Part shown: piece after piece, positions 11,654 to 18,516 of the stretch
Layout: each line of letters starts with the position of its first letter
How positions within the stretch are numbered: position 1 is the first letter of the stretch
NCBI GenBank assembly: GCA_902511425.1
Contig: CABXFE010000001.1
Coordinates: 18,476 to 82,475, forward strand
Direction: 5' to 3'
Length of the DNA stretch: 64,000 nucleotides
Origin: an uncultured SAR86 cluster bacterium
GTDB lineage: Bacteria; Pseudomonadota; Gammaproteobacteria; Magnimaribacterales; D2472
Program-made: the position numbers and the translations under genes
Notes under the pieces: generated by a model
Told to the model about the DNA's origin: nothing
Database searches by the model: none
What the model saw: the letters and a program-made list of their open reading frames with translations, nothing else

Positions 11654-11919
11654 GTACAACTGTTTTCTGTAAAAAATTTCAAAAAGATTTACCCGCCATG
11701 ACAGTGCCGCCAATGCCCGGGCCTAAAGGTAAGGAATTAATGGAAACTGTATCTCAAGAGGCATGGGAATCTTGGAAATCACATCAAACAACTCTTATAA
11801 ATGAAAAACACCTAGACTTGTCTCAAGCAGATGCCCGTTCTTGGTTGCTAGAACAGATGGAAAAATTTTTTAATAATGAAGAAGTCGAACAAGCTTCTGG
11901 TTTTAAAGCAATAGACTAA
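11650..11919 (+). CDS. yggX: Fe(2+)-trafficking / oxidative damage protection protein YggX
   Basis: 89 aa. The beginning [15 protein letters not shown] and the conserved mutY-yggX pairing support the call. Confidence 0.85.
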   Translation: MSTTVFCKKFQKDLPAMTVPPMPGPKGKELMETVSQEAWESWKSHQTTLINEKHLDLSQADARSWLLEQMEKFFNNEEVEQASGFKAID

Positions 11920-12680
11920 CTATTCCACCAAGCTGTATCTGAGAAAGCTCTAATATCTATTTCGTGACTCCAAGCAGATCGATGCTGTTGAGACAAGTAA
12001 TAATATGTTTCCGCAACTCGCTCAGGCAGAATCAACCCATCGTGCTCCATGCCTTTCGTTTCTCTGAGTTGTTGAAATAATTCTTCTCCGAGCATCTTAC
12101 CCAAAGTGTCTGGAGCATCAACCATTCCATCCACTACAATATGAGCCACATGAATTCCCTTTGATGCAAACTCAGCATTGAGAGTTTGGCATAACATCCT
12201 CCTTCCACCCATGGCTGCAGCATGAGAGTGCTGATTTTTATTTCCACGCATAGCAGCTGTTGCAGAAGTAACTAGAAATGTGCCAGCACCTCTTTCTTCC
12301 ATGATTGGCATTAATACTTTTGCTACTCTAAACAATCCCAAATCTGCCATCCTCCAGCCCCACTCAAACTCTTTTAAAGTCGTTTCATTAAGTAACTTCA
12401 TTCCAGTTTGAGCACCAAGGTTATAAACAAGGACCTCAATTGGCCCTACATCTTTTTCTATATTTAAGATTAAATCCTCGAGAATATTTTCTTCAATTGC
12501 ATTAATGAGATAACCGCTTGCAGAGCCACCTTTTTCTTCAATATTTGATACCAGTCTATCTAATCCATTCTGATCAGACCTTCTGCATAAACATGAGTGA
12601 TAACCTTCTTGAGCAAATTTTGTTGCAACAGTTCCACCAATGCCGGCACCGGCACCCAAAACTAAGCAAACTGGCTTCAT
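11916..12680 (-). CDS. SDR family oxidoreductase
   Basis: Rossmann GAGAGIGG motif; 254 aa. Lies 6 nt downstream of the amidohydrolase gene. Confidence 0.75.
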   Translation of the reverse strand: MKPVCLVLGAGAGIGGTVATKFAQEGYHSCLCRRSDQNGLDRLVSNIEEKGGSASGYLINAIEENILEDLILNIEKDVGPIEVLVYNLGAQTGMKLLNETTLKEFEWGWRMADLGLFRVAKVLMPIMEERGAGTFLVTSATAAMRGNKNQHSHAAAMGGRRMLCQTLNAEFASKGIHVAHIVVDGMVDAPDTLGKMLGEELFQQLRETKGMEHDGLILPERVAETYYYLSQQHRSAWSHEIDIRAFSDTAWWNS

Positions 12681-12686
12681 AACTAT

Positions 12687-14597
12687 TTAACTCTCAGAAA
12701 CAATTGTAGTTTTCATAGACTTTCCGCTGAATCTCCAAAAGAAACTTAAGGCTTTCACTGCCATTAATCGAATGGTCTTATCAAAAAATGAAACCTTTGA
12801 TATGCCTGTTTTTACTTCACAAACCTGCTTTCCTCTGATTAATTTCCCTGGCAACACTCCATTAGCTTTACCATTTTCAGAAACTACTTGGCCATTCTTT
12901 ATGGTGGCAATATAACCCGTAGCGTCTTGAACCAGGCGTCTTCCACCCAGTGGAAGATCGTGAATCATTGTTGGGTGACTTACATTCAACTTATCAAAAT
13001 CAATAATATTAATATCAGCTAACATGCCAGATTTTATTTCACCTCTATCAAATAAACCAAAAGTCTCAGCTGTGTCTTTAGTTTGTTTCTTGATCAACAT
13101 CTCTAGTGGAAACTTTCTACCTGCCTCTCTATCTCTTCCCCAATGTGAAATATTGGTTGTTGGCATGCTCGCATCACAAATTAATCCGCAATGGGCGCCG
13201 CCATCACTTCCTCCAGCAACAGATGACTTTAATCGATAGGCCTGTTCAACAAAATCTAGCTTATATTTTTCATAAGGTGTGAAGGCAGCATAAATTAAAT
13301 TGGTACCTTGATTTTGAAGCATCTCATCATACATAACCTCAAGCTCAGATATGTTTTTTCTTGAAGCTATCGCGGCAATACTATCTTCTTCTTTGGGTTC
13401 ATAATTTGGAGGTGTCCCAAGGATGAATTGGGTTTTGTAGTTTGAGGTGATGGTTGTTGGGAGTGCGACATCTTGCGCAATTTCTTCTCTAGTTTTATTG
13501 GAAGGATTATCTGTAAGTCTTGCCGTTATTTCTGATTCAAAGTCTGGTTCTTGACTAAGTAATTTCTCTTTAAAAAGAGGATCTTTTAAAATTTCATATT
13601 TTTGATCCATAGGTAGATTAATAATTTCTTTATAGGCAGGAAATTGCATAAATGGATTGACTGAAGTTTCCCAGCCAAACATTAAACCAACATTTCTCCC
13701 TGGAAATTGAGGTCGAATATTCTTACCTTTGAGAAAGTGCTCCTCAGAAAATAAAATTGTTTTTACTGCGTCGCCTTTGGTTTGCAGAAAGGTCAATCCA
13801 CAATCACTTTTTTTAACATATTCCTTCATCCAAGACATTTCCATCTCTTCATCCAGCCAGTCAGATGTTATTTCTAGAGTTCCTTCTCCAGCTTTATCAA
13901 CTCCAAAAGCAAGAGCTCGCATCTCTTCCGAACTTGCTTCCGTGCCAGGCACATATTTCCCATATATATCTCTATGCAGAACAGTTCTAGAGGTGCTAAA
14001 TCCAAGCGCTCCGGCTTCTATGGCTTCAGTGACAAGTCCTGACATTTTGCTAATCTCTTCATCAGATGCGTCTACTTGATTCTGACATCTTTCATAACCC
14101 ATTACATAGCTTCTTAAAGGGCCATGACCCATCATAAACCCAACATCCATAACGAATTCTTTTTTGTCGATGGCATCTAAAAATTCTGGAAAAGTTTCCC
14201 AATCCCAGTCAATTCCCTCATGTAACGCTGAACCTGGAATATCTTCAACACCCTCCATTAATTGAATAAGGAAGTTTTCATCTCCGGGGCGCACTGGCGC
14301 AAATCCCACACCACAATTTCCCATAACTGCAGTTGTAACACCATGCCAGCTTGAAGGAGTGAGATATGGATCCCAGGACACTTGTCCGTCATAGTGAGTA
14401 TGAATATCAACCCAGCCAGGCGTTACCAAATTTCCTTTTGCATCAAACTCTTCTTTCCCTGAGTTTTCAATCTTCCCAACTGATGTAATTTTCCCACCAT
14501 CAATGGCAATATCACCAAAGAATGGTTTTTTCCCTGATCCATCTATAATTTTGCCATTACGAATGATCAGATCATGTGTGTTTTTATTTGTTTCCAT
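12687..14597 (-). CDS. N-acyl-D-amino-acid deacylase family amidohydrolase (D-aminoacylase-like)
   Basis: 636 aa. The DIHTHYDGQ metal motif and the N-terminal small beta-domain pattern (IIRNGKIIDGSG...DIAIDGGKI) are typical of D-aminoacylases. Confidence 0.75.
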   Translation of the reverse strand: METNKNTHDLIIRNGKIIDGSGKKPFFGDIAIDGGKITSVGKIENSGKEEFDAKGNLVTPGWVDIHTHYDGQVSWDPYLTPSSWHGVTTAVMGNCGVGFAPVRPGDENFLIQLMEGVEDIPGSALHEGIDWDWETFPEFLDAIDKKEFVMDVGFMMGHGPLRSYVMGYERCQNQVDASDEEISKMSGLVTEAIEAGALGFSTSRTVLHRDIYGKYVPGTEASSEEMRALAFGVDKAGEGTLEITSDWLDEEMEMSWMKEYVKKSDCGLTFLQTKGDAVKTILFSEEHFLKGKNIRPQFPGRNVGLMFGWETSVNPFMQFPAYKEIINLPMDQKYEILKDPLFKEKLLSQEPDFESEITARLTDNPSNKTREEIAQDVALPTTITSNYKTQFILGTPPNYEPKEEDSIAAIASRKNISELEVMYDEMLQNQGTNLIYAAFTPYEKYKLDFVEQAYRLKSSVAGGSDGGAHCGLICDASMPTTNISHWGRDREAGRKFPLEMLIKKQTKDTAETFGLFDRGEIKSGMLADINIIDFDKLNVSHPTMIHDLPLGGRRLVQDATGYIATIKNGQVVSENGKANGVLPGKLIRGKQVCEVKTGISKVSFFDKTIRLMAVKALSFFWRFSGKSMKTTIVSES

Positions 14598-14631
14598 ATA
14601 TTTAATTTAACGCTAAATCATTAGTTATGGA

Positions 14632-14660
14632 ATCATATTTATTGGCATAATATATGTCAA
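14632..14660 (-). promoter_or_regulatory. sigma70-type promoter for the D-aminoacylase/SDR operon (TTGACA-17 nt-TATGAT)
   Basis: Read on the minus strand: perfect -35 TTGACA (14655-14660), 17-nt spacer, and -10 TATGAT (14632-14637), about 35 nt upstream of the ATG at 14597. Confidence 0.5.
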
Positions 14661-14679
14661 TAGTTGAACATCGGCCAGC

Positions 14680-16104
14680 TTAATTGGCAACATGTCTATT
14701 TGAAAGAAATATCTCAACATCGCCACTGATATTCAGTTTGAGGGGGAACATAACCAGATCAAAGGTTCCGCTTGAATCAACATCGAATAAATAACCCTGC
14801 GAACCATCGTTGATGCTGTATGTAGGCCATGACGAGGTATCTATATTCATGTATCCATTTCCAGTATTTATATAAACTTCTGGAACACCCTCATTATCAT
14901 CTTGATCGTCCCAGGGTTGACTGAATACTTGTGCAACTATGTCGCTCATCTGATCTCCATTCACGTCCATGCAGTCAAAGAAGTTAAAGTTATGATTTAT
15001 TTCCTCTCCGATGACTTCTATTTGCTTTTCTACTAATTCTTTATTTTTAATTTCATAAAAAGTAAAAATAACCACAGGATCAGTATCTGTTTCTGAATAG
15101 AAGCCTCCTTCAATGATTTCTCCTGATTTAAGCTTGCTAGCATTAATGGTTGCGATTATTTGATCATCCTGGCGACACATTTCTGTGGTCATTCCATGGA
15201 AATAATTTTCGCCACGAATCTCGTAAACTCCTAACTGGTCATATTTTCCTGTTCCTTTATTATTCCAACCCTCAAAATTTACTTTAAAGCTCTCTTCAGT
15301 CATAAGAGAAGATATAACTTGGTTATTTTCTAATAACTCTAATCCCTGCATTCCGTCTCGCCTTACGCTGTTGATAATGAAGTCGTCATAAACTAGAAAA
15401 CTTGCAAAACTTAAGTCATTATATTGATCAGATATATCTACCCACTTAGAGTCAATCAGCTCAAAAGCTTGTGAGCTATGCCCGCCAAATAGAGCTTTAC
15501 TATCTTTTATTTGTACTGAATGCCCCCAATCAGCATTCCCTAATCGCTCTATCGTATAGCCTGATTCACCGCTCATTAATATTGAGGGGCGAGCATAATT
15601 AGCAATCATTGAATTATAATCATACGAAGCCCTGCCATCTTCCCAGTTCATAGCAAAGGCAAAATCATCTTTACCATCACCATTTAAATCACCTCTAGAA
15701 TATTTTCTACTGGCACCACCTAATTGAGCATTGATGGAGCCAAATGCCTTAATATTATCTATGGTATAGCCTCCAAATCCATCACTGATATATGCTACGA
15801 GAGCGTCTTTAACGGGCTGATCGTCAAACTCTGCAGGAGTGATCGAGTCACACCAAAAATGAGCAATAAAATCTATAAAACCATCTTCATTGATTTTGGT
15901 TGGTATCAAGAATTGAAAAGATGGGTTATTGCATGCCTGGGAATAGTAGCTAGCAGCATCAATTAGCCTAATGGGAGACTCCTTAAATAAGGGTTGAGGA
16001 GGAATATTTTGGGTAGGAGGAATAACTGCTTCAGGGGAAGACGCACCTCCGCCGCCACAACTTATAACAAGCAATAAGGAAAAAATTTTATAAAAATGTT
16101 TCAT
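14680..16104 (-). CDS. lipoprotein with FG-GAP/Ca-binding-like DxNxDG repeats, function unknown
   Basis: Lipobox LLVISC followed by GGGG. Repeats DLNGDGKDDF, MDVNGDQMSD and FDVDSSGTFD; 474 aa. Confidence 0.55.
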   Translation of the reverse strand: MKHFYKIFSLLLVISCGGGGASSPEAVIPPTQNIPPQPLFKESPIRLIDAASYYSQACNNPSFQFLIPTKINEDGFIDFIAHFWCDSITPAEFDDQPVKDALVAYISDGFGGYTIDNIKAFGSINAQLGGASRKYSRGDLNGDGKDDFAFAMNWEDGRASYDYNSMIANYARPSILMSGESGYTIERLGNADWGHSVQIKDSKALFGGHSSQAFELIDSKWVDISDQYNDLSFASFLVYDDFIINSVRRDGMQGLELLENNQVISSLMTEESFKVNFEGWNNKGTGKYDQLGVYEIRGENYFHGMTTEMCRQDDQIIATINASKLKSGEIIEGGFYSETDTDPVVIFTFYEIKNKELVEKQIEVIGEEINHNFNFFDCMDVNGDQMSDIVAQVFSQPWDDQDDNEGVPEVYINTGNGYMNIDTSSWPTYSINDGSQGYLFDVDSSGTFDLVMFPLKLNISGDVEIFLSNRHVAN

Positions 16105-16146
16105 TTTTTAAAGATCATTACTTAGAAGAATGAAGAATAGTAGAGC

Positions 16147-16192
16147 GGTTTTAAGAGACAGAATCGAGCTACCGAAACATAAATTTTCAGTC
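16147..16192 (-). repeat. decayed direct copy of tRNA-Phe positions 30-75 (anticodon loop to acceptor 3' strand); att-like relic
   Basis: Ungapped hand alignment to the tRNA at 17441-17486 gives 33/46 identities, including GACTGAAAAT and TCGATTC. Same orientation as the tRNA. Confidence 0.7.
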
Positions 16193-17356
16193 TGCACTTC
16201 CTTGTGTATCTAAATGTTTAGCTAAATGACTGTGAAAATTCACTATGGCTTTTTCAAAGTAACCAAAGGTTAAATGATCATTAGCTTTTGTGCTTAAAGT
16301 TTCTTGAATTGCCCTGGCCGCTTCTCGATCTTCATCCTGACCAGTGTCACCGACAAATTTTGCGTCTTTCATAGCATCTTCTTTGGAGAACTTCCCTTTC
16401 TTATTGCTCTTATTAATTAAGGTATAAATTACCCATTTTGATCGAGATGGACTGATAGGTTCTAAAATTACTAAATTAGTATGTTTAGATAAAACAGAAA
16501 TACTTGCATTGGGAAACAAGCTATATACCGATGTGATTGTTCCATCTATCACCCTGCTAGATGGCTCAACTTCTCTTAATTTCTCAATACGTCTAAAGGG
16601 GAAGATCACTCGGGAATTTTGACCATAGTTTTCTACAACATTGATATTATCTAATCCGTATGGAAAAAATGTGTCCTTATGAAGAGTTTTTATGTGATAA
16701 CCCTCGAGCAAAGTCTCATGCAGTATTTTCCAATTTGCCTCATCTTCAATCTCTGACTGATTAATTAAAGCTTGATCATCAGCAAAGTAATTCAGGGCTT
16801 CATCTAAAAAGTTTTTTGAAATCTCTCCATCCTGACAAACATAAACTATGCCTCCTATTTCAGCAGCATTAACTGGTTTGAGTCCGTGCTCTAATGGATC
16901 AATGCCTGGAAACCCATCAGATCCTGGAATATTTCTATTTTCACCTTTTAAACCATAGGTCCAACCGTGATAAGGGCAAACAAATGATTTTTTGCAACCA
17001 CTTCCCGAAGCGACTTGCATGCCTCTGTGCCTGCAAGCATTGATAAATGCATTAACCTTGCCTTCTTCATTTCTAGTTACAAGAATGGGTGTGCCGGCAG
17101 CAATTCTTGAAACATATGAGCCCTTTTCTGGAAGTGCGCTTGATGGACAAAATGGCACTGGCTGAGATCTGAGTAATTTTATTTCTTTATTAAATCTCTG
17201 CTGATCTACATAATTTTTTACAGGCTCTTTCCAGACTTCGCTGCCTAAGTCTGTTGTTTTATTATCTATATGAGATAAGACACGCTCAATAATTTGATTA
17301 TCATCGAGCAGCAATGAGGTGGGACTTGCGAGAGAGTAATGATTTGATTGGCTCAT
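16187..17356 (-). CDS. Rieske [2Fe-2S] ring-hydroxylating oxygenase, alpha subunit-like (orphan)
   Basis: Rieske motif CRHRG...CPYHGW and a catalytic-domain His pair (EGYHIKTLH). No reductase or ferredoxin gene is adjacent. Confidence 0.8.
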   Translation of the reverse strand: MSQSNHYSLASPTSLLLDDNQIIERVLSHIDNKTTDLGSEVWKEPVKNYVDQQRFNKEIKLLRSQPVPFCPSSALPEKGSYVSRIAAGTPILVTRNEEGKVNAFINACRHRGMQVASGSGCKKSFVCPYHGWTYGLKGENRNIPGSDGFPGIDPLEHGLKPVNAAEIGGIVYVCQDGEISKNFLDEALNYFADDQALINQSEIEDEANWKILHETLLEGYHIKTLHKDTFFPYGLDNINVVENYGQNSRVIFPFRRIEKLREVEPSSRVIDGTITSVYSLFPNASISVLSKHTNLVILEPISPSRSKWVIYTLINKSNKKGKFSKEDAMKDAKFVGDTGQDEDREAARAIQETLSTKANDHLTFGYFEKAIVNFHSHLAKHLDTQGSAD

Positions 17357-17439
17357 TTAAGATAATTATTGCATATTCGTTCAAAATTAGATTTCAAAGT
17401 AGTGAAATATTAATTGTTATAAGAATATTGAAAAAAGAA

Positions 17440-17515
17440 TGGTGCCCAGAGGTGGAATCGAACCACCGACACAAGGATTTTCAGTCCTTTGCTCTACCGA
17501 CTGAGCTATCTGGGC
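17440..17515 (-). tRNA. tRNA-Phe (GAA), 76 nt with encoded CCA
   Basis: Minus-strand sequence GCCCAGATAGCTCAGTCGGTAGAGCAAAGGACTGAAAATCCTTGTGTCGGTGGTTCGATTCCACCTCTGGGCACCA folds into a standard cloverleaf. Anticodon loop is CTGAAAA. Confidence 0.95.
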
Positions 17516-17628
17516 AAATAAGGAAAAAGAATTATAACTGAACTGTGCTTGGTGGAGAATAGTTACTAGGAATATAAATATTAATGGATGTATTTCACAG
17601 ATTTTTAAATTTACTCTAAACTAAAAGA

Positions 17629-18516
17629 ATGGCAATCCAACATGTTAGCCCGGACACAGATATAGGTGTAATTCTTGATATCATTGAGCGTGATGCAGCG
17701 GTCGTCATTGATGATGTGTTAACCAAAAAAGATCTTGATGATATTAAAAATGAACTGAGCCCATATCTTAAAAATGATATAGAGGGTGATAATGAGTTTA
17801 CTGGATTTCAAACCAAAAGAGTTGGAGCTCTTATGGCAAGATCGCCAAAGTGTCGTGAGTTAGCCCTTAATCCAACAATCAATGCTTTATCGGCAAAATT
17901 TTTAGAACCCCACTGTGATGGATATCAACTCCATTTCACATCTGCGATTTCTATCGGACCCAATGAAACACCTCAAATTCTTCATAGAGATCGAGGAGTA
18001 TGGGGAGGATATGTGCCGAGGAAAATAGAAACTCAATTTAGTACTGTTTGGGCAATAACAGATTTCACTAAAGAAAATGGGGCCACTCAAGTTGTGCCAG
18101 GTTCACACAAATGGGATAAAGATAGAATGCCACACGATGAAGAAATTGAAAATGCTGAAATGAGTGCAGGCTCAGTATTCATTTACACTGGATCTGTAAT
18201 GCATGGCGGTGGAGCCAATCAAACATCAGAAAATAGACTCGGTGTTTTTTTGCACTATGCTCCAAATTGGCTAAGACAGGAAGAAAATCAATACCTCTCT
18301 TGCCCTCCATCGATAGCGAAAGAGCTGGAGCCTGAACTTCGAGATCTAATGGGTTACTCCCAAGGCGGTTACGTTTTAGGATTCTTTACCGACCCAACAG
18401 ATACTGAGGGAAAATTTGAATCTGTATCACCCAAAAAACTCTTCGGAGAAGATATTGATCGGTTTAAAATTGCTTCATCTGAGGAGCTGGTTAAAAGCTC
18501 TACCAAAAAAAATTAA
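17629..18516 (+). CDS. phytanoyl-CoA dioxygenase (PhyH) family Fe(II)/2-oxoglutarate oxygenase
   Basis: 295 aa. HRD facial-triad start (ILHRDRG) and a distal His (SVMHGGGAN). Confidence 0.7.
   Translation: MAIQHVSPDTDIGVILDIIERDAAVVIDDVLTKKDLDDIKNELSPYLKNDIEGDNEFTGFQTKRVGALMARSPKCRELALNPTINALSAKFLEPHCDGYQLHFTSAISIGPNETPQILHRDRGVWGGYVPRKIETQFSTVWAITDFTKENGATQVVPGSHKWDKDRMPHDEEIENAEMSAGSVFIYTGSVMHGGGANQTSENRLGVFLHYAPNWLRQEENQYLSCPPSIAKELEPELRDLMGYSQGGYVLGFFTDPTDTEGKFESVSPKKLFGEDIDRFKIASSEELVKSSTKKN

Follow-up and report, generated by a model that had tools for sequence, protein, structure and literature searches.

A decayed tRNA-Phe copy behind a Rieske oxygenase gene, very probably an integration scar, lies within an active tRNA-Phe integration hotspot of SAR86 bacteria

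Several classes of genomic island have been described in which a small-RNA gene serves as the integration target. In the tDNA islands of Islander, a transfer RNA (tRNA) gene split by a tyrosine integrase is made whole again by the island, whose far end is marked by the displaced fragment (PMC4383910). In the tycheposon islands of Prochlorococcus, successive integrations push older elements inward and leave partial tRNAs scattered (bioRxiv 10.1101/2020.12.28.424599), in the accretion of streptococcal cis-mobilisable elements (CIMEs), units flanked by attachment (att) sites but without recombination genes stand in tandem with integrase-bearing relatives of the same arms (review PMC5704250), and in the tandem ssrA islands of Dehalococcoides one small-RNA gene is reused as the site, direct repeats of its 3' end separating the islands (PMC3146451). 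The present work concerns a locus in an uncultured SAR86 cluster bacterium (Gammaproteobacteria; Magnimaribacterales; D2472), contained in a window of 64,000 nucleotides, the whole stretch analysed (assembly GCA_902511425.1, contig CABXFE010000001.1, positions 18,476 to 82,475 of the forward strand). On the minus strand of this window, an intact tRNA-Phe(GAA) gene (17440-17515) is followed by a Rieske oxygenase gene (16187-17356) and then by a decayed direct copy of tRNA-Phe positions 30-75 (16147-16192), hereafter the relic, which lies ahead of a gene for a lipoprotein-like protein. The relic is very probably an attachment-site scar made by an integrase, and it marks the boundary between an oxygenase unit and a lipoprotein cassette of a cassette island anchored at the tRNA. 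As a scar it is of an ordinary, well-known kind; the tRNA-Phe hotspot of SAR86 is not known to have been described before, and no paper describing it was found in the literature.

Read as the reverse complement of 16147-16192 (GACTGAAAATTTATGTTTCGGTAGCTCGATTCTGTCTCTTAAAACC), the relic matches tRNA-Phe positions 30-75 at 33 of 46 positions without gaps, with unbroken runs in the anticodon loop (GACTGAAAAT) and the T-loop (TCGATTC). When the 46-mer was slid along both strands of the window (128,000 positions), the runner-up reached 25/46. Under the window base frequencies, a match of at least 33/46 has a probability of 1e-11 at any one position and 1.3e-6 in the window as a whole. In 100,000 shuffles of 16140-16200 the best score was 26, so that 33 was never attained, and the gapped local alignment of relic and tRNA scored 34, where the null distribution lies at 13.5 +/- 2.0. 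Because the oxygenase gene closes with GA[C/T/A] T[G/A]A (last codon and stop) in relatives without a relic as well, the first six matching positions cannot be counted as separate evidence; the remaining match, 27/40, has P = 6.6e-9 for a single position and 8e-4 for the window. Chance is excluded as the source of the match. No counterpart of tRNA positions 1-29 is seen upstream of the relic (5/29, by eye). ARAGORN finds a single tRNA in the window, the tRNA-Phe at 17440-17515, which scores 75 bits with the Rfam tRNA model, and an Rfam scan of 15500-18000 at E <= 10 reported this gene alone and not the relic. The alignment and both of its uninterrupted runs had been pointed out in a first-pass annotation of the sequence and stood up to the shuffled controls, and the open reading frame (ORF) list bears out that the oxygenase is the only gene, and the sole long ORF, between the two copies.

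The tRNA-Phe sequence is identical in all SAR86 relatives, and each related locus holds one tRNA-Phe only by ARAGORN. Scanning the relatives with the 46-mer revealed extra partial copies, perfect or nearly so, all on the tRNA strand and all starting from the anticodon loop, where they begin at CTGAAAAT (position 31 or 32), the same boundary as that of the relic, whose similarity sets in at position 30/31. The metagenome scan alone gave at least 138 copies on at least 120 contigs, along with at least 47 full tRNAs, and perfect partial copies in relatives number at least about 150, all with the boundary of the relic. These same-boundary copies, together with the integrase-bearing elements at the same tRNA described below, uphold the proposal of the first-pass annotation that a displaced 3' tRNA copy here is the footprint of an integrase with crossover in the anticodon loop. 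The tRNA-Phe gene of SAR86 is a very active integration hotspot; in the window, the gene at 17440-17515 is the target (attB/attL), with its anticodon loop CTGAAAA as the crossover region. Cargo between tRNA and copy includes a desaturase with a TetR protein, a 709-amino-acid (aa) coiled-coil protein, a restriction-modification pair, and small membrane proteins. Islets bracketed by copies span 0.6-13 kb (0.9-2.7 kb for six islets in genome-derived loci), and arrays with two or three att sites per contig were found among relatives. Among the matches listed, the units between consecutive att sites are mostly without integrase and have a median length of 1.6 kb, with 30 of 65 under 1.5 kb, values biased by the limited extent of the contigs. 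The sequences left of the copies comprise at least five conserved att-arm families among the matches listed, and tandem repeats of 8-9 nt (TGAACACT, TCGCATACT) recur in these arms and right of the tRNA, in the layout of the arm-type sites of lambda-like integrases. Three one-ORF islets end on the loop TGA of a perfect copy (locus labels L031-L150 denote metagenome contigs and L013-L022 SAR86 genomes): L057 with 357 aa (230-1303), L144 with 263 aa (copy at 881), and L142 with 161 aa (copy at 854). They are built like the oxygenase and its relic in the window, so one-ORF units without a non-coding arm exist today. A scan of viral contigs for the tRNA 3' part gave no matches, and hence no phage-borne attP.

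Integrases are encoded at the hotspot itself. Seven contigs carry, on the same strand as an att site and starting 100-165 nt after it, a gene for a protein of 384-411 aa (L078 178-1413, L080 165-1346, L122 192-1352, L045, L071, L089, and L109). In PHROGs, five of six members matched phrog_1 'integrase' (best E 6.5e-30); Pfam returned a SAM-like N-terminal domain alone, at threshold, NCBIfam one weak XerA match only, and a PDB sequence search with the profile of the family no matches. The alignment retains the box I arginine (MLRPTVSE), the YSLRH motif, and the C-terminal tyrosine, and the family may represent a poorly charted clade of tyrosine recombinases. Two elements are complete, with att sites on both sides: that of L078 is 12.7 kb long and combines the integrase with a type I restriction-modification system, and that of L080 is 7.1 kb long and combines it with a resolvase. 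Inspection of their ORFs by eye, without a family-library scan, showed the integrase, the restriction-modification system, the resolvase, and small unknown proteins, and no replication module was seen. Six further contigs (L031, L060, L065, L081, L127, and L134) hold integrase-less islets of 0.7-1.5 kb with both the left and the right att arm of the L078 element; these resemble non-autonomous miniatures and could be moved in trans.

The locus agrees with the tDNA islands of Islander in its intact tRNA, cargo, and displaced direct 3' fragment, in a boundary at the anticodon loop, a known crossover sublocation, and in the tyrosine integrases carried by related SAR86 elements at the same tRNA. 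It differs in that the unit of the window measures 1.25 kb, with one gene and no integrase, in that the fragment has decayed to 72% identity, and in that the 'cargo' is a gene conserved across the clade and native in composition. With the tycheposon islands it shares a streamlined marine host, tRNA-targeting tyrosine recombinases, layered integrations with scattered partial tRNAs, defence and niche cargo, and many integrase-less remnants; unlike them, it belongs to SAR86, a host unmentioned in bioRxiv 10.1101/2020.12.28.424599, and many of its units are single genes of 0.6-1.5 kb. This comparison is one of island anatomy, the SAR86 integrase being placed by its phrog_1 match. As in CIMEs, the oxygenase unit between tRNA and relic lacks an integrase and SAR86 arrays grow beside existing units, whereas the SAR86 locus is without conjugation or mobilisation genes and trans-mobilisation is here only a candidate. 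The Dehalococcoides islands differ in their target, a transfer-messenger RNA and not tRNA-Phe, in organism, and in their larger size.

Three layouts of the locus were distinguished by mapping neighbouring genes with tblastn. In type A (the window, SAR86E, AG-447-M16, AG-447-I15, and L004-7), PALP(-), abhydrolase(-), and PhyH(-) are followed by tRNA-Phe(+), oxygenase(+), the relic and the lipoprotein gene where these are kept, amidohydrolase(+), adh_short(+), YggX(-), and MutY(-). In type B (L008-10, L016-19, L022, and the outgroup HIMB1674, where adh_short was undetected), the order is MutY(+), YggX(+), adh_short(-), then tRNA-Phe(+) and oxygenase(+), then a TonB-receptor-like gene of 756 aa (-) and, further on, PhyH(+) and abhydrolase(+). 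Type C (L132, L079, L086, and L121) has adh_short(-), the tRNA, an amidohydrolase gene directly after a perfect tRNA-Phe copy, and PhyH(+), without the oxygenase. Since the flanks stand in opposite order, the tRNA-plus-island segment is inverted between types A and B; against L008, L016, L020, and L132, the inverted segment corresponds to about 11900-17650 of the window, relative to the adh_short-YggX-MutY and PhyH-abhydrolase blocks. The gene orders are nested, from copy-amidohydrolase (type C) through copy-lipoprotein-amidohydrolase (L073) to tRNA-oxygenase-relic-lipoprotein-amidohydrolase (type A), and this supports stepwise accretion at the tRNA, which predicts such a series. Part of the exchange in this island is not att-mediated: in L022 (11264-13091), a ferredoxin gene paired with a membrane desaturase/hydroxylase-like gene has been inserted some 95 nt past the oxygenase, and the same pair lies behind the lipoprotein gene in L025 (1293-2728), its ends without att copies.

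Orthologous relics sit at the oxygenase stop across type A. Their match to the tRNA is best in the L153/L158 group (37-38/46), followed by the closest relatives of the window (34-35/46) and L159 (33/46), and is lowest in L004-7 (22-23/46). They have decayed at differing positions, with 43 of the 46 positions matching the tRNA in at least one lineage, so the ancestral copy matched at no fewer than 43/46 and type A began with an almost perfect copy. A comparison of the window with L056 shows differences at 3 of 46 relic positions and 13 of 389 third codon positions of the oxygenase (Fisher P = 0.23), which fits neutral decay. The one present role of the relic is to supply a stop codon, the oxygenase TGA (16187-16189) being the TGA of the relic loop CTGAAAA. 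This coincidence had been noticed in the first-pass annotation and is real; the position of the stop is nonetheless ancestral (TAA in type B) and not made by the relic, since the C-terminus S-[AT]-[DE]-stop of the 389-aa oxygenase is common to types A and B and the stop position is therefore older than the relic. Between a SAT-PALP gene pair and the oxygenase, L021 (2396-2457) and L025 (5200-5258) contain a decayed T-arm-like piece, CTCGATTCAGTCTC; it has three derived bases, all transitions, in common with the relic of the window (CTCGATTCTGTCTC), by common origin or by convergence.

The place of the relic is occupied by intact sequence elsewhere. In L073, L053, L044, L143, and L069, a perfect copy stands exactly where the relic stands, before the lipoprotein gene and with a homologous spacer, and in L018 the lipoprotein gene directly follows the tRNA-Phe itself. 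These copies and the tRNA align with the relic in register, and the spacer between relic and lipoprotein start codon (16105-16146, minus strand) is homologous to the spacers behind them, with a shared TCTAAGTAAT[G/A]ATC block, so that the tRNA 3' part, the spacer, and the lipoprotein gene form a conserved unit. The empty site foreseen in the first-pass annotation, tRNA-Phe running straight into the lipoprotein gene, thus exists, though in other SAR86 species (lipoprotein 63-80% identical) and not in near-identical strains. Within type A, parts of the region were lost later by microhomology deletion. In L014 the lipoprotein gene is cleanly deleted between TCGGTGGC in the relic and TCAGTGGC near the gene end; in SAR86E, L003, L015, and others, the loss extends over the last five oxygenase codons, the relic, and the lipoprotein gene; and L004-7 retain only the first ten lipoprotein codons. 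The oxygenase is lost in L034 (copy at 2432) and L114 (copy at 1436), where a CATT microhomology joins a perfect copy to the final 22 nt of the gene and the relic, and an acyltransferase replaces oxygenase and relic in L152 and L098. The oxygenase C-terminus itself occurs in forms of 389, 384, and 383 aa (window 16187-16210; L003, L013, L015, L106, and L153-L163), which stem from small deletions at or beside the relic junction, including truncations by which the gene becomes joined to the promoter region of the amidohydrolase; the 383-aa alleles lack 18 nt between AGA repeats.

The oxygenase (389 aa, minus strand) is an alpha-only, non-haem iron protein with the Pfam domains Rieske and Ring_hydroxyl_A. 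Its nearest solved structures are 3n0q, the stachydrine demethylase Stc2, the monooxygenase/demethylase 4qup, and the carnitine oxygenase CntA (E 1e-18 to 1e-24), and it scores 102 bits with NCBIfam GbcA, far under the 670-bit equivalog cut-off. The lack of an adjoining reductase or ferredoxin partner, already remarked upon in the first-pass annotation, was borne out in the window by the ORF list and Pfam; the strong conservation of the protein in SAR86 speaks for a genuine function under selection and for a partner encoded at some other locus. Homologues 85-100% identical occur on many marine contigs, and among species-representative genomes the identity is 97% in SAR86E, 86-91% in several single-cell genomes, and 81% in the complete genome HIMB1674, which puts the window near SAR86E within the cluster. 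Between types A and B, synonymous codon identity is 51-53% for the oxygenase and 36-55% for its neighbours, saturated in both, and protein identity is 86-88% for the oxygenase versus 50-74% for the neighbours. Its GC content (0.374), GC at third codon positions (0.282), and codon-usage distance (0.119) compare with window means of 0.370, 0.288, and 0.129. The picture of an imported orphan is not sustained by these data: the gene has no foreign composition, and it is a long-standing, strongly conserved neighbour of tRNA-Phe across SAR86 that diverges in step with core genes. Recent horizontal import was accordingly rejected, given saturated synonymous identity like that of the flanking genes and native GC and codon usage, and the sequences point to vertical descent under strong constraint, or at least to no recent transfer. 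The oxygenase start lies always 40-85 nt past the tRNA or a displaced copy, behind a homologous spacer (17357-17439 on the minus strand of the window, where it runs from the tRNA 3' end to the start codon); this spacer measures 83 nt in type A and 41 nt in type B, with its ends common to both. On these comparisons, the adjacency of tRNA-Phe and oxygenase predates the relic, which records an event on the type A stem. Beyond this SAR86 clade, more distant homologues of the oxygenase (63-65% and 43% identity) have no tRNA adjacent and are uninformative on the direction of the event.

As to how the relic came to lie at the oxygenase stop, we tentatively favour, without placing the greater part of our confidence in it, a history in which the oxygenase unit was inserted as a circle at a tRNA behind which the lipoprotein cassette lay at the time. 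On the type A stem, tRNA-Phe would have led directly into that cassette. A small oxygenase-bearing circle, probably derived from aberrant excision of this constant neighbour of the tRNA, would have recombined with the tRNA at the anticodon loop, the last codons of the gene abutting the att core of the circle. The circle would have brought a new tRNA 3' part, and the resident part, displaced 1.25 kb downstream and freed from selection, would have decayed to 33/46. The same type of reaction has been seen at least about 150 times at the tRNA-Phe locus, and integrase-less islets are common among relatives. Several observations weigh against this course of events. Most islets have a recognizable non-coding P arm, which the oxygenase-relic junction lacks; neither a circular nor an excised form was seen; and tblastn with the hotspot family finds no integrase homologue in the window, in keeping with the first-pass annotation of an integrase-free islet, nor in the genome loci. 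The adjacency of tRNA and oxygenase with a homologous spacer extends throughout SAR86, including type B, where no repeat downstream of the oxygenase is significant (P > 0.3). A T-loop-like piece past the oxygenase of L008 (type B) matches at 13/16 with P = 0.015 before multiple-test correction and is not claimed as a relic. The oxygenase is thus in part what the first-pass annotation had named as evidence against integration, a gene vertically kept at repeat-less loci, for type B has tRNA-Phe and then the oxygenase with no detectable repeat. Synonymous divergence of the oxygenase equals that of core neighbours and its composition is native; since simple arrival through this insertion would not suit a native, core-like gene, one has to assume a re-insertion. 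The moving piece would, on this reading, have been the oxygenase unit rather than the lipoprotein cassette. Of the suggestion that the locus is an old domesticated islet or the residue of a larger island, the integrase scar stands, but the relic is younger than the tRNA-oxygenase adjacency and heads the lipoprotein cassette as much as it closes the oxygenase unit.

The opposite assignment, in which the scar is an att site but the oxygenase never moved, is rather unlikely, yet draws on several of the same facts. A lipoprotein element, or one with lipoprotein and amidohydrolase, bearing a tRNA-like arm would have entered a secondary site at the oxygenase end GA(x) TAA AA, the relic being the arm of the element, and the lineages with a copy before the lipoprotein gene would later have lost the oxygenase by att x att excision. 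Secondary-site integration is established for lambda-type integrases, the oxygenase is vertically inherited and tRNA-adjacent in both major synteny types, its ancestral terminus, S-[AT]-[DE]-stop, is similar to the core GAC TGA AAA, the left side of the junction is coding DNA without a P-arm motif, and several lineages possess the tRNA 3' part, spacer, and lipoprotein gene as an independent unit. ORFs ending at a loop TGA could also be mimicked by pseudo-site insertions that survive only at stop codons; however, such ORFs recur before perfect copies in clear cargo islets. An inserted element should also have left a second relic at the distal end of the lipoprotein/amidohydrolase unit, and none was found (none of 26/46 or better in the window, none of 25/46 or better in L151, and likewise in L062 and L036). 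Moreover, two independent precise losses of the oxygenase are needed (L073-type and type C), and the type B stop region fits only about 4 of 7 overlap positions. Quite improbable, in turn, is a secondary rearrangement, by which a microhomology deletion or an inversion of the island joined the oxygenase stop to a pre-existing distal copy with no integrase reaction at this junction. Microhomology deletions are frequent here (L014, L034/L114 at CATT, the 383-aa alleles at AGA) and the whole tRNA-plus-island segment was inverted between synteny types, but the junction matches to the base the boundary of the at least about 150 integrase-made copies, and a direct-orientation copy past the oxygenase still needs either an oxygenase within inserted DNA or a secondary-site event. 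We consider it very unlikely that the relic is a functional tRNA-like RNA, kept by selection as a terminator or processing signal where the oxygenase mRNA ends: its T-arm still pairs with G-U wobbles (by eye) and L004-type relics keep a perfect GCAGA/TCTGC stem around the loop, yet no terminator-like site was found at the relic, its fold is no stabler than that of shuffles (z = +1.0), Rfam gives no match, lineages have lost different parts and several have deleted it outright, and its divergence is no slower than that of third codon positions. A second tRNA-Phe gene in decay, duplicated in tandem and with its 5' third overwritten by the oxygenase C-terminus, has only direct orientation and proximity in its favour and is scarcely credible. 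Relatives carry one tRNA-Phe per locus and no second bona fide gene, all partial copies start at position 31 or 32 and none reaches 5' of the anticodon loop, and the C-terminal oxygenase codons upstream of the relic are homologous in relic-less genomes; decay of a tandem tRNA was rejected on these grounds.

Downstream of the relic, the lipoprotein-like gene (14680-16104, minus strand; 474 aa), for which family scans gave no match, forms the island's next cassette, with the relic at its head, and the amidohydrolase gene (12687-14597, minus strand; 636 aa; Pfam Amidohydro_3) is a further unit. Ahead of the amidohydrolase gene, window 14642-14660 forms a near-palindrome (minus strand: TTGACATATATTATGCCAA) that is kept in all lineages, including L132, where a perfect tRNA copy lies 37 nt upstream; it is probably the operator of some regulator. 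At 12681-12686 the amidohydrolase and adh_short genes are just 6 nt apart, whereas L151 (5231-6723), L062, and L036 carry two extra genes between them, for a 133-aa protein and a GSDH-family protein; a deletion in the window is suggested by the presence of these genes in close relatives. The minimum of the cumulative GC skew of the window (~16.7-17.3 kb) coincides with the switch in gene orientation at the tRNA/PhyH boundary.

Functionally only, the locus resembles the cassette arrays of integrons, with mostly single-gene units split by a recurring recombination site. It has neither an intI/attI platform nor attC-type imperfect palindromes, its recurring site consisting of a tRNA 3' fragment and element arms, and an integron proper was rejected as an identification, since no integrase flanks the tRNA and the repeats are tRNA fragments, not attC. 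It is a speculative and rather doubtful proposition that the tRNA-Phe locus of SAR86 acts like an integron without a platform, in which cassettes without an integrase, most of them of one gene and each bounded by a tRNA-derived att site of 45 bp, would be shuffled in trans by the tyrosine integrases of sister elements. The conserved oxygenase would then be a mobilisable cassette whose stop codon came to lie in the att core after capture by aberrant excision.

SAR86 is among the most abundant bacterial clades of the surface ocean, and to our knowledge the source of its variation in gene content is poorly documented. The relic has pointed to a locus that exchanges dozens of units of one to few genes at a single 45-bp site, including restriction-modification systems, desaturases, adhesin-like proteins, lipoproteins, and the oxygenase, and this wider, cassette-like tRNA-Phe island is of more interest than the relic itself. 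The locus offers a practical marker for flexible genes and strain structure of SAR86 in metagenomes, and it is a candidate system for the trans-mobilisation of tiny, integrase-less units.

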